Of a DNA stretch of 64,000 bases, positions 39,754-47,835 are shown piece after piece (positions within the stretch are counted from its first letter, which is position 1; each line of letters starts with the position of its first letter). The position numbers were made by a program, and so were the translations under genes. A model generated the notes under the pieces. The model was not told where the DNA came from. It ran no database searches and worked only from the letters and a program-made list of their open reading frames with translations. The DNA comes from an uncultured bacterium (GTDB lineage: Bacteria; SAR324; NAC60-12), in assembly GCA_964010765.1 (NCBI GenBank), contig CAXGMD010000003.1:27885-91884 (forward strand), given 5' to 3'.

Positions 39754-39780
39754 TTAGCACTCATTGATGGATAGTGCTAT
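39754..39780 (+). promoter_or_regulatory. CIRCE operator 1 (HrcA site)
   Basis: TTAGCACTC-N9-TAGTGCTAT; two mismatches to TTAGCACTC-N9-GAGTGCTAA. Confidence 0.88.
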
Positions 39781-39787
39781 TTTTCTC

Positions 39788-39816
39788 TTGATTTCTCAAA
39801 CTGGCTTGGATAAGTT
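39788..39816 (+). promoter_or_regulatory. Sigma70-type promoter of groESL
   Basis: TTGATT-N17-TAAGTT lying between the two CIRCE elements. Confidence 0.65.
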
Positions 39817-39817
39817 T

Positions 39818-39844
39818 TTAGCACTCACTTCAACCGAATGCTAA
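39818..39844 (+). promoter_or_regulatory. CIRCE operator 2 (HrcA site)
   Basis: TTAGCACTC-N9-GAATGCTAA; one mismatch to consensus. Confidence 0.92.
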
Positions 39845-43767: not shown

Positions 43768-43920
43768 AAAAAATCGGAAGGGAAGTTGCAACGAGGTACT
43801 TGATAACCTGTACCCCGTAGCATCTTAAAGAGAAGTCAGAGGCCCTTGCGGACGGCAACTTCCATTGGCGTCAATCGATGACGGCACTTCCGACGTATGT
43901 AAAGCCGTTGGGTCGGAAGC
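43768..43920. ncRNA. Candidate structured RNA or leader (no family recognised)
   Basis: Nested and alternative helices, a GCAA tetraloop and a U6 tract on the - strand; see findings. Confidence 0.4.
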
Positions 43921-43981
43921 AGATAACGTTTGGGCGTTTTCATAGATCCCCATGTACAAGAGATTGCGACAAGCACTCATA

Positions 43982-44041: not shown

Positions 44042-44311
44042 ATGCCGCGGGGAGGATTTCGAGAAGGCGCTGGGCGCAAGAAGGAATACACTGAACCAGT
44101 GCGAAAGATCCTGTTGGGCTTGCCTGAGTCGGTGCTGCAGGAGTTGGATCAATATGCCAATCAACGCAATTTATCACGTCCAAAAGCAATCGCTGCTTTG
44201 TTGAAACAAATCCATCGTCCAGAAGAACCGGCCCGGCAAAAAACACAACACAAGGTTGTCCTGCAGGAGCTCAAGTCACTTCGAGAGAAACTCAAGAAGA
44301 GTTCCGACTGA
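44042..44311 (+). CDS. Small DNA-binding protein, ribbon-helix-helix/CopG-like
   Basis: GAGG ribosome site; RGGFREGAGRK arm followed by LPESVLQELDQYA...LSRPKAIAALL. Confidence 0.72.
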   Translation: MPRGGFREGAGRKKEYTEPVRKILLGLPESVLQELDQYANQRNLSRPKAIAALLKQIHRPEEPARQKTQHKVVLQELKSLREKLKKSSD

Positions 44312-44465
44312 GCTGAATTGGTTCCTCTGCATCATCAGCAGAATTTTTCTGCAACTGTTGGAGTCGCTGGCGAGATGCTTCAAAACGCCTTCTTGAGATA
44401 CGCCGTTCAATGATGCCCAAAGTAACCATCGACACGAATATCATCAATATTAGCACCAATCCCAT
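44292..44465 (-). CDS. 57-aa single-pass membrane protein (below the ORF track cutoff)
   Basis: MGLVLILMIFVSMVTLGIIERRISRRRF...; GAGGTTAGG before the ATG. Confidence 0.55.
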   Translation of the reverse strand: MGLVLILMIFVSMVTLGIIERRISRRRFEASRQRLQQLQKNSADDAEEPIQLSRNSS

Positions 44466-44921: not shown

Positions 44922-45140
44922 ATGGACGCAAAATCTCCCGCCCTAATTGTACAGCAAGCCTCTAAGGTACTGAGTCTGGAGACTGTCAAACGAGGCAAGC
45001 GCCCGTATGACAACGCTTTGATCACAGAACAGTTGGATCTAGTGGAAAAGTTGGTGAGCAGGGATCATGCAAACGAATTGATTCGACTCTATCGTCTGCA
45101 AGATCCCAATGTGGATGGAACGTCTTGGCCACTGCGTTGA
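44922..45140 (+). CDS. Hypothetical protein (72 aa)
   Basis: ATG ORF filling the gap after fxsA; no family recognised. Confidence 0.55.
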   Translation: MDAKSPALIVQQASKVLSLETVKRGKRPYDNALITEQLDLVEKLVSRDHANELIRLYRLQDPNVDGTSWPLR

Positions 45141-45153
45141 GGACAGTAACGCT

Positions 45154-45534
45154 TCACATGAACAGACTGGACAACCGAGGAGCAGGCTGTCCATTTCGGA
45201 AATCAGCGCCTGACATCAACTCCCGATGAAGCATCAGGCTCAATGGCACCGCTTGGGGTTGTGATCGCAAAAACAACTGGGACAGCGCAGGCTTCGGATC
45301 TTCCTCTGATTGAAAGTCCTTACCCGACATCAAACGAACCTTCGTCTTGGGAACCGTTTCCTGGACAGTAACCGGACGATGATTCTCGGTGTTTTGAACG
45401 ATCTGCAACAGCAGTTCACGTTCTCGCTGGTCTTGGCCGCGCTGCTCGATCAGACGTTCATTCATGTCGATCAGGCGGTTGTTCAGACCAATCAACCACT
45501 CTTGTTGTTGCGATTGCAACAGGTTGCTCTGCAT
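45154..45534 (-). CDS. Hypothetical protein with a coiled-coil N-terminus and a duplicated LMSGxDF...LSxLF motif
   Basis: GGAG 8 nt before ATG 45534; internal repeat visible in the translation. Confidence 0.65.
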   Translation of the reverse strand: MQSNLLQSQQQEWLIGLNNRLIDMNERLIEQRGQDQRERELLLQIVQNTENHRPVTVQETVPKTKVRLMSGKDFQSEEDPKPALSQLFLRSQPQAVPLSLMLHRELMSGADFRNGQPAPRLSSLFM

Positions 45535-45819
45535 TTTCGTCACTCCATGACTACTCGGTTCTCATCCTGAAAACCGTACTACATTGGGTACGCCCCCGCC
45601 CTGCCAAAGGAAGTACCAAACTAACTCTCTGATCCCAATATCTAGAGTCAGAACACAGCAAAAACTCGAGCTACTGGCTCCATGCCGCTAGCAACGCCGT
45701 GTTGAACGATTCTGGAAGAAACTTTGGTTTCGGAGAATTTGTAAGGCGAGAATAAACCGGTTGGGAGGGTGCAGGGTCGATCAAAGCGTGTCGTGTCCAA
45801 TGACAGACTGGTTAGCATC

Positions 45820-45937
45820 TTGCTGTTCTCTTGAGACTAGCCTGCCTCCGATGGCAGGTGGATTATGCGACAGATTTTGGATGACTCTGACGCTGATGGG
45901 ATGGCTCAGACTAAGCACTCCCGCCGATGGGGAGTGC
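45820..45937 (-). ncRNA. Candidate tandem-hairpin RNA (sRNA or 5' leader)
   Basis: Two units of [hairpin with CAUCGG]-YUAG-[hairpin starting UCU], 74 nt apart, directly after a predicted promoter. Confidence 0.45.
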
Positions 45938-45941
45938 ACAA

Positions 45942-45970
45942 AACCTATGCAAAAAGGGTTCGGACTGCAA
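45942..45970 (-). promoter_or_regulatory. Predicted sigma70-type promoter
   Basis: TTGCAG-N17-TAGGTT on the - strand. Confidence 0.45.
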
Positions 45971-45971
45971 G

Positions 45972-46000
45972 AAAAAAATCTGACTTATTCAGATTTTTTT
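45972..46000. repeat. Perfect 12-bp inverted repeat (operator or weak terminator)
   Basis: AAAAAAATCTGA-CTTAT-TCAGATTTTTTT. Confidence 0.6.
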
Positions 46001-46085
46001 TATTTCTACAACTCTTCTAACTCAATTTTTCTCTCCGTTTCAGGATTCAAAGTTACCGTGGATGGTATTTTTCGATAGCTAGCAG

Positions 46086-46772
46086 ATGGATTTACAACAA
46101 GAACAACAGCAATGGTGGGCTCGCTGGCAAGAGGGCCGAATTGGCTTCCATCTTCCAGAAGTCAATCCTCTGCTTATTCGCCATGTACACGCCCTGGCAA
46201 CCGAAACTCACCCCAATGAAACATCCTGTATCCTTGTCCCACTCTGTGGCAAATCAAAGGACTTGATCTGGCTTCAAAGTTACTTTCATCAGGTCATCGG
46301 AGTGGAGCTAGTTCCTCAGGCTGTTAAGGCTTTTTTTGAAGAGAACCAAATCACTCCGACTCACTCCCTAAGAGATCCCTTCGCAACCTACCAACACGGC
46401 AATCTAACCTTGCTACAGGGCGATATCTTCCAAATGAGTTCCAAACATCTGGAGGATCAACCGATTCGAACGGTTTTTGATCGGGCTTCCCTGATTGCCC
46501 TACCTAATGAATTACGGAAAAATTATGTAGCGTTACTTCGTAGCCTGGTTTCTCCCAACACGAAGCTGTTGTTGGTGACGCTCGCTTATGAAGACGGTGT
46601 GATCAGTGGTCCGCCACATTCAGTTCCAGAAAATGAGATCTTCGATTTGTTTGCCTTCGCTACCAACATCGAACTGCTGGAAAAACAAGATATCCTCCCT
46701 GAATCTCCCAACTTCCAGAAAGCTCGACTACGTTGGGCCTACGAAGCTGTTTACCTGATTACCTTCCCATGA
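46086..46772 (+). CDS. Thiopurine S-methyltransferase family protein
   Basis: WQEGRIGFH..VNP.L, LVPLCGKSKDL, DRASLIALP, GPPHSV. Confidence 0.92.
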   Translation: MDLQQEQQQWWARWQEGRIGFHLPEVNPLLIRHVHALATETHPNETSCILVPLCGKSKDLIWLQSYFHQVIGVELVPQAVKAFFEENQITPTHSLRDPFATYQHGNLTLLQGDIFQMSSKHLEDQPIRTVFDRASLIALPNELRKNYVALLRSLVSPNTKLLLVTLAYEDGVISGPPHSVPENEIFDLFAFATNIELLEKQDILPESPNFQKARLRWAYEAVYLITFP

Positions 46773-47506
46773 AAATTCTTGCTGTCATCCCAGCTCGTTA
46801 TGAGTCTTCACGATTCCCTGGCAAACCACTGGTTGAACTACATGGGAAGCCAATGATTCAGCATGTATACGAACGAGTTCAACAAGTTCTCTCAGTAGAT
46901 CAGGTCCTCGTAGCTACCGATGATGAGCGTATCATCAACGCTGTCCAGGCCTTCGGCGGTCAAGCCTGTATGACTTCGCCTGATCACCCAACAGGGACAG
47001 ATCGAATCGTGGAGGTGATTCAGAATCAGCCCTGTGAGTGGGTGCTCAACGTCCAGGGAGATGAACCAACCATCGCACCTAATGTTTTAGAAACACTCAT
47101 CCAGCGTGCACTTACAGATGGCAGTTGCCCCATGGCAACTCTCGTTTTTCGCAGTGATGATCCCAATACTTGGCGAGATCCGCATGTTGTCAAGGCCATA
47201 CTGGCACAAAATCAACGAGCTCTCTATTTTTCACGATCACCGGTACCTTATGTCCGAGATCAGGTGTTTCGTGGTTGCTGGAAGCACTTTGGGGTCTACC
47301 TATACCGTCGTGACTTTCTGCTGGAATTTGCCAACTGGCCCTCAACCCCTCTTGAACAGCAAGAGCAGTTAGAACAATTGCGGGTTCTGGAGAATGGATA
47401 TTCGATCCTTTGCGTAGAATCTCCCGTGGACAGCATTGGAGTGGATGTGCCAGAGGACCTTGCGCACGTTGCTCAACTGATCGCCACTGGAATGATACCA
47501 GATTGA
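46769..47506 (+). CDS. kdsB: 3-deoxy-manno-octulosonate cytidylyltransferase
   Basis: IPARYESSRFPGKPL, NVQGDEP, ALYFSRSPVP, EQLEQLRVLENG; ATGA overlap with the upstream gene. Confidence 0.95.
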   Translation: MKILAVIPARYESSRFPGKPLVELHGKPMIQHVYERVQQVLSVDQVLVATDDERIINAVQAFGGQACMTSPDHPTGTDRIVEVIQNQPCEWVLNVQGDEPTIAPNVLETLIQRALTDGSCPMATLVFRSDDPNTWRDPHVVKAILAQNQRALYFSRSPVPYVRDQVFRGCWKHFGVYLYRRDFLLEFANWPSTPLEQQEQLEQLRVLENGYSILCVESPVDSIGVDVPEDLAHVAQLIATGMIPD

Positions 47507-47835
47507 TTCTTACTAATTTAAATAATTTAAATTCTTTTTATTGAGAAAGCTTTTTGTATTTCACTACTTCACTCTCTCTCATTATGTAACTTTTTACTAG
47601 AAGTTACAGTCTTATCAGGTCATCAATTTTTCTTCATTTTTTCAATAGAAATAAAGATTTTTTATCACACCAACACACTCGAAATTTAGACTCTAAAAGT
47701 TACAGTTACATTTTTAGCAAAAACGCATCTCTACCGAAATTGACTGGATTCTTCCTCATAACTACGGTTTGTTTTTCTGTTTGAAGACAAACCAAATCCT
47801 CATATTCATTTTTCAAATTTATCAAGAGACGTTCT

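Follow-up and report, generated by a model that had tools for sequence, protein, structure and literature searches.

A stretch of the minus strand situated between a 126-residue orphan ORF and a divergent thiopurine S-methyltransferase (TPMT) gene most likely specifies the structured 5' leader of the orphan protein's message. (The window referred to below is the whole 64,000-nt stretch of DNA that was analyzed, from an uncultured SAR324 bacterium whose genome is designated G000; G001 is a distant member of the same genus.) A σ70-type promoter would direct synthesis of a ~830-nt minus-strand mRNA for the orphan protein, with the hairpins that first drew attention to this locus constituting the 5' domain of its ~404-nt leader. 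The structured leader is a real, uncatalogued element restricted to one genus of aquatic bacteria, and probably a long variant of the CsrA-controlled kind. CsrA-type translational control through the candidate GGA sites is the likeliest mechanism, one in which, judging from sequence, we place middling confidence. The sequence features, their retention in G001, the RNA-library contigs and the csrA gene are observations; the start site and its strand, a single transcript for leader and ORF, the folds and CsrA binding are deduced from them. Coordinates of the leader and its surroundings are collected in Table 1.

Table 1. Features of the leader region and its flanks (window coordinates; G001 is the distant genome of the genus)
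Feature	Position	Strand	Remarks
A/T tracts 5' of the -35 box, UP-element-like	45972..46001	-	12-bp palindrome in G000 only
-35 box, TTGCAG	45965..45970	-	identical in G001
-10 box, TAGGTT	45942..45947	-	TACTTT in G001; predicted start about 45935-45937
Predicted structured 5' leader, ~404 nt	45535..45937	-	408-410 nt in G001; RNA contig 45103-45932
P1, 5'-terminal hairpin	45915..45937	-	position conserved, sequence not; CIRCE-like stem, 11-nt spacer
CCCAUCA linker, single-stranded	45894..45900	-	identical in G001
P2 hairpin	45867..45893	-	sequence varies
Conserved 58-nt core: P3, purine-rich linker, P4, 5' arm of P5	45801..45858	-	41/58 identical to G001
P3 hairpin, loop AUCGGA	45841..45858	-	part of core; one compensatory pair
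P4 hairpin	45814..45824	-	part of core; contains AUG at 45818
P5 helix	45785..45809	-	in G001 two compensatory pairs, one one-sided change, one broken pair
Possible upstream ORF, 56 codons	45648..45818	-	62-63 codons in G001; peptide sequence not conserved
Small AUGGA-loop hairpin, candidate CsrA site	45676..45687	-	exact 11-nt match in G001, equally far from the start
8-bp AGGAU-loop hairpin, candidate CsrA site	45556..45576	-	AAGGAU in G001; stem covaries
AUGGAG, ANGGA over predicted Shine-Dalgarno	45543..45548	-	21 nt after previous GGA
ORF of 126-residue orphan protein	45154..45534	-	predicted N-terminal helix of ~50 residues; two SGxDF...LSxLF motifs
TPMT gene, divergent neighbor	46086..46772	+	Pfam PF05724; followed by cytidylyltransferase, PF02348

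The promoter

The preliminary description of the locus, checked here on the minus strand of the window, had proposed a promoter consisting of TTGCAG (45970-45965) and TAGGTT (45947-45942) separated by 17 nt and followed 4 nt later by a first hairpin (P1, 45937-45915), with a second hairpin (P3, 45858-45841) downstream and the word UAGUCU after each. All of these are present. So is the inverted repeat placed beside the -35 box (12 bp, 45972-45983/45989-46000, one base from the box), and the gene start expected at about 400 nt is the next ATG, at 45534, 404 nt from 45938. The 74-nt spacing given for the two hairpin units needs correction: the CCAUCGG words begin at 45930 and 45854 and are thus 76 nt apart.

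A generic promoter scan did not report the predicted minus-strand promoter; its support is comparative. In G001 the promoter block, A/T tracts included, is identical at 43/60 positions without gaps, and the spacer is likewise 17 nt. (The TTTTGCATAG context with a 17-nt spacer has two matches in G000, the other being the promoter of tRNA-Thr.) The 12-bp palindrome is unpaired in G001, where only its A/T tracts are retained, again ungapped. Because pairing is lost while the tracts are kept, we infer that the palindrome may serve as an upstream promoter element rather than as a terminator. TPMT homologues outside the genus have different upstream neighbors, and the motif is absent.

Distribution among relatives

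In seven of the eight genomes of the genus the stretch is present and 92-97% identical. G001, the remaining one, is much more diverged: its TPMT is 56% identical, and the fourfold-degenerate sites of 11 syntenic genes agree at 257/1008 positions (25.5%) and are therefore saturated. A covariance model finds the element in 8 of 88 genomes of the phylum, all of this genus (g1), with one copy in each and two in G007. (The G006 assembly is 68% complete and its contig begins past the core.) In G000 a core HMM matches only itself, which speaks against a dispersed repeat. Nine loci came out of a pattern scan of metagenomes, four belonging to near-identical members of the clade and five judged to be chance matches. 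The GTDB scan yielded at least 119 loci and the viral scan 4; genus-type cores are found in 4/123 among the matches listed, the others being at most 33/58 identical. Homologues of the core outside the genus were accordingly found neither in the 88 phylum genomes nor among the metagenome loci and the GTDB and viral matches listed. When the hairpin pattern is searched with one mismatch in the 88 genomes, the result is mostly background, resembling a reversed control.

Restriction to one genus means that covariation rests on two lineages, and the presence of the leader in only two independent lineages counts against the reading of a CsrA-controlled leader. A further point against that reading is that in genera g2 and g12 homologues of the orphan ORF lack the leader and have other, shorter upstream regions. 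The comparison with Rfam that had been suggested for the hairpins assigned no family: Rfam 15 gives no match in the window at the gathering threshold, and of seven sub-threshold matches (E up to 10) six involve the A/T palindrome, while P1-P5 have none. 6S RNA (RF00013) is not encoded here, the genome's copy lying at G000:C53, and tmRNA is on C6. A literature search, outside whose range lay motif-catalogue supplements and subscription papers, found no description of such an RNA.

The hairpins and the conserved core

The alignment of close homologues comprises 12 loci and the window (one locus is represented by the TPMT side only, one is partial, and G007 contributes two). In it, 2/59 columns of the core are variable, versus 10-24% in other segments, and none of the 32 pairs of P3, P4, P5 and two GGA hairpins varies. 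In G001, P4 is invariant and P3 retains its loop, with one G-C pair changed to A-U on both sides. Across five named helices, which were picked after the G000 and G001 sequences had both been seen, both partners are changed in 4/26 pairs, and pairing holds in 99% of cells.

The occurrence of two CCAUCGG hairpins is not due to chance, since only 2 of the 448 CCGATGG heptamers of G000 (both strands, Watson-Crick pairing) close a stem of at least 6 bp, both of them at this locus; for ten control heptamers the count in such stems is 4/3660. The cluster of CAUC words in this region is not exceptional (in the genome, four CCATC fall within 85 nt at nine places, and groups of five CATC number 113).

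That the two hairpins mark a conserved RNA element is borne out in part. What is conserved is the 58-nt core at the second hairpin, whose ungapped identity of 41/58 to G001, like the 43/60 of the promoter block, stands out against the 25.5% at fourfold-degenerate sites; the sequence of the first hairpin and the UAGUCU repeats are not kept in G001. Conservation of the loops in relatives, likewise, holds for P3 but not for P1, whose loop is mutated in 3/9 close rows and whose place is taken by an unrelated hairpin in G001. UAGUCU is missing from G001 altogether, and the UCUGA/UCAGA helix is disrupted in 4/8 rows. Because only the promoter block and the second-hairpin core are kept in G001, neither a tandem of equivalent modules nor the pairing of CAUC loops with start codons that went with it finds support, and the tandem symmetry is a feature of the G000 clade only. 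Start-codon regions complementary to the loops are not enriched: counting perfect complements, CCGATGG spans none of the 3187 start codons of G000. The other option in the preliminary description, a leader, is supported, as are the minus-strand promoter and transcription. The conserved GGA loops further 3' in this leader had been overlooked.

GGA sites and the case for CsrA

The leaders of G000 and G001 share five collinear exact matches of at least 7 nt, and the longest three all hold GGA: they are the P3 loop, the AUGGA loop at 45681 and the AGGAU loop at 45567. In 300 shuffles the mean is 0.05 and the maximum 1. GGA overall is not enriched (the 404 nt contain seven, four of them conserved, where simple arithmetic predicts about 6), and the 3' half of the leader is 26/58 identical to G001 in ungapped comparison, no better than shuffles. 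The GGA of the small hairpin at 45676-45687 is predicted to be 97% and 99% unpaired in the two genomes. The stem of the AGGAU hairpin has, in G001, one compensatory and two one-sided changes in six pairs, a comparison of two lineages only. AUGGAG (45548-45543) lies 8 nt before the ATG; its AUGGA is kept in G001, farther from the ATG, and the spacing of the GGAs proximal to the ribosome-binding site (RBS) is 21 nt in G000 and 23 nt in G001. A GGA-loop hairpin of at least 7 bp within 60 nt is found for 29 of the 2724 long ORFs of G000.

The genome has a csrA gene (PF02599 at G000:C13, 87.9 bits), with flanking genes that, going by names drawn from their translations, we take to be flgL-like and fliW-like. 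Its presence does not discriminate, csrA being found in 83 of the 88 phylum genomes.

CsrA binding at the conserved GGA loops would repress translation of the orphan protein. One CsrA dimer would bridge the RBS-proximal GGA pair with its 21-nt spacing, and the upstream GGA loops (at 45681 and in P3) would supply extra sites; P1 and P2, whose position is kept but not their sequence, would mainly shield the 5' end. Several observations tell against CsrA. Local folds give the RBS-proximal GGAs of G001 unpaired probabilities of only 0.36 and 0.32, pairing probability of the G001 stem is 0.16 in the global fold, and the P3 loop, AUCGGA, does not match ANGGA. CsrA also leaves the rest of the 58-nt core in part unexplained. 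A more elaborate proposal, to which we attach low probability, is that the RNA serves two functions: the message, non-flagellar and very abundant, would have a leader whose four GGA loops act as a dedicated CsrA sponge, replacing Csr sRNAs in a lineage with FliW-type CsrA, and the 58-nt P3-P5 core would be a new sensor module with a gating role.

If CsrA control holds, this uncultured lineage would gain a first candidate target of CsrA beyond the flagellar genes (the literature search found no paper combining SAR324 and CsrA), and this target sits on a transcript present in many metatranscriptomes. An abundant multi-site leader could, moreover, titrate CsrA, an activity known from few mRNAs. 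Distribution in one genus, the orphan nature of the protein and thin covariation limit the weight of the proposal.

Comparison with known RNAs

The E. coli ompA and cspA messages are abundant and have a 5'-terminal hairpin at the start of a long stabilizing or regulatory leader. The leader described here likewise begins with a 5'-terminal hairpin and is long, exceeding theirs ~2-3 times. The Cuckoo and alpha-r14 modular sRNAs consist of tandem hairpins with C-rich loops; unlike these, the loops here lack an anti-Shine-Dalgarno repeat, the modules are non-equivalent in relatives, and there is no Rfam match. The CsrB, RsmY and RsmZ sponge sRNAs are dense arrays of GGA sites that end at a terminator. 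In contrast, the leader has four conserved GGAs over 300 nt and neither a dense array nor a terminator nor an Rfam match, and its transcript would run on into a coding gene. The likeness lies in several hairpin-loop GGA motifs on one RNA (PMC4894983).

The flaA leader of C. jejuni carries a pair of ANGGA loops separated by 21 nt; CsrA represses it and is titrated by it (PMC4894983). Resemblances extend to a csrA locus of the FliW type, a GGA pair ~21 nt apart made up of a hairpin loop and a Shine-Dalgarno sequence, stems kept by compensatory change and an apparently abundant mRNA. The differences from flaA are that a ~404-nt leader of a σ70-type orphan gene stands in place of a 45-nt leader of a flagellin gene, that extra upstream GGA loops and the conserved 58-nt core are present, and that the CsrA sites here are candidates.

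Transcription

Contigs from RNA libraries cover the locus; metatranscriptomes make up 18 of the 24 listed libraries that carry it. In run X10 a single contig, 45103-45932, has 0 differences from the window, covers the whole 126-residue ORF and ends 3-5 nt inside the predicted start. No X10 contig lies over 46021-47826, on the TPMT side (a weak hint, from one study). In three of the four runs contigs pass the promoter, reaching 46235 in X11, 46450 in X17 and 47692 in X1; since X1 and X17 have cover in every one of the 30 bins, DNA or background may be included. Contigs reveal neither strand nor start, and the X10 evidence is therefore a hint from one study. Depth of the X11 contig is 234, versus 12-27 for groEL pieces, although depths cannot rank genes and are not taken as proof of abundance. 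A scan of the leader for minus-strand terminator-like sites between the promoter and the ORF found none.

Summed depth in X17 reaches 13,579 in the bin 45118-45418 (the 3' part of the ORF), several-fold over the leader, again a quantity that cannot rank genes; this excess could come from a stable 3' fragment, from an internal RNA or from contigs of several strains stacked on one another. Two further unannotated ORFs were noted nearby. One, of 72 residues (44922-45140, plus strand), is 70% identical in G001 and its 3' end overlaps the end of the leader-transcript contigs; the other, of 57 residues (44292-44465, minus strand), is conserved and has a hydrophobic N-terminus.

The orphan protein

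The 126-residue ORF is a real gene: synonymous and non-synonymous changes among close homologues stand at 24:12. Homologues of its product are found in 14 of the 88 phylum genomes, in three genera, and have one or two SGxDF...LSxLF motifs; two intermediate homologues, P0005 and P0011, are 75% and 47% identical. The protein belongs to no Pfam or NCBIfam family and has no usable Atlas match; a profile search gave 12 matches, three of which are unrelated repeats, and the structure model is one long helix with a low-confidence tail (pTM 0.33). It offers no clue to the signal.

Upstream of the orphan-ORF homologue in g2 and g12 there is a conserved A/T palindrome with a ATTGTCAAYAAT core (L037 ~1345-1370 and equivalents in L038-L042), a candidate repressor site. 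The ATTGTCAAYAAT palindrome is absent from the g1 leader, and matches in G000 with one mismatch look like background. A 13-nt word is common to the short g2 upstream region (L038, ~1440) and the linker/P2 junction of G007; the match is probably fortuitous but possibly reflects shared ancestry. An unannotated 35-residue ORF at ~43836-43943 (minus strand), ending in ...EVxxRKGL/F and equipped with a σ28-like promoter (~44024-43997), is divergent from an 89-residue gene at 44042. By eye, it is conserved in g1, g2 and g12 (L037-L042, L100), and its place in g2 and g12 is immediately 5' of the orphan-ORF homologue.

Alternative interpretations

The ORF might be controlled, without involvement of CsrA, by the 58-nt core (P3-P4-P5) acting as a new kind of ligand- or protein-binding module, either riboswitch-like or autoregulatory. 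The core is the most constrained part of the leader by the column counts given above, its unpaired and loop bases are kept as well, and it is without an Rfam match; a possible switch is offered in G000 by an alternative partner for the 5' arm of P3, a G-rich tract near 45605. That alternative pairing, however, has no compensatory counterpart in G001, there is no terminator, the RBS of the main ORF is 270 nt away, and one copy per genome in one genus ahead of an orphan target gives no clue to a ligand. We consider such a module possible but doubtful; it is compatible with CsrA binding further down the leader.

Alternatively, the core might be the initiation region of the upstream ORF, with AUG 45818 sequestered in P4 and translation remodeling the leader or coupling to the main ORF. 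Both the AUG and the purine-rich stretch ahead of it are conserved; in each genome the frame stays open (56 codons in G000, 62-63 in G001) and contains an in-frame G-M-E, and none of 16 close variants gains a stop. Nevertheless, synonymous and non-synonymous changes are 6:10, versus 24:12 for the 126-residue ORF, the peptides do not align and no codon run is common to both lineages; G-M-E can be accounted for equally well by an AUGGA loop. Translation from this AUG thus appears an unlikely basis for conservation of the core.

A stand-alone or 5'-processed minus-strand sRNA of ~150 nt, acting in trans through C-rich CCAUC loops, was the original idea, and a strong conserved promoter, several hairpins and the keeping of the CCCAUCA linker and P3 loop in G001 are consistent with it. 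What makes it improbable is that a terminator was not found and RNA contigs continue unbroken into the ORF, that the P1 loop is mutated or replaced, and that the best 9-mer complements match at most 4 of 3187 start regions, with the P3 loop not in the top 12.

It is very unlikely that the palindromes are DNA operators, P1 for HrcA (CIRCE) and P3 for another dimeric regulator, and not RNA hairpins. P1 does resemble CIRCE: its six-base arms (GCACTC/GAGTGC) are identical, they lie one base after the -10 box in the register of the groES CIRCE, and G000 has an hrcA-like gene and seven CIRCE sites. Yet each of the 7 genuine sites combines a 9-nt spacer with the TTAGCACT half-site, whereas P1 has an 11-nt spacer, differs in its outer bases, fits with neither half and is missing from G001. 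The genome has a single copy of the P3 palindrome, conserved in its loop as well as its arms.

A plus-strand RNA ending at the 45972-46001 hairpin, or a TPMT attenuator, is most improbable: the plus strand with its palindrome folds better in G000 (z -3.31; folding is modest on the minus strand, z -1.43), a U-tract follows the hairpin, and of three wobble-type polymorphisms in close strains two preserve G-U pairs only on the plus strand and one favors the minus strand, but the hairpin is broken in G001 while promoter spacing is kept, X10 shows nothing past 45932, G-U pairs of P5 and the GGA hairpins (G000, G001) are possible on the minus strand only, and the plus-strand 105-residue ORF is interrupted by TAG in 4/8 rows. 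This ORF (45761-46078) was dropped as a candidate gene for its stops in relatives. Two readings of short motifs were also rejected: GCCGAUG as a σ28 element has a -35 spacing unlike that of the 10 σ28-like sites found, and a plus-strand GG-N10-GC at ~45809-45823, whose spacing we take to be σ54-like, is intact in neither G001 nor G007.

Other observations

Two of the CIRCE sites precede groES (window ~39754-39844) and five more are in G000 contigs C12, C24, C35, C52 and C80, where they stand before genes that are presumably hrcA-like, protease-like, clpB-like, small heat-shock-like and unknown; the seven sites outline an HrcA regulon. ARAGORN reports a tRNA-Sec at G000:C1:1049-1147 (minus strand) and a tRNA-Pyl at G000:C64:16896-16980 (minus strand), which may be spurious. 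A GC-rich, hairpin-like CCAUCGGAGG repeat occurs at three places in G034 (L056, on C31, and on C318 and C332), two of them near contig ends; its flanks are unrelated and it is probably a separate repeat family.
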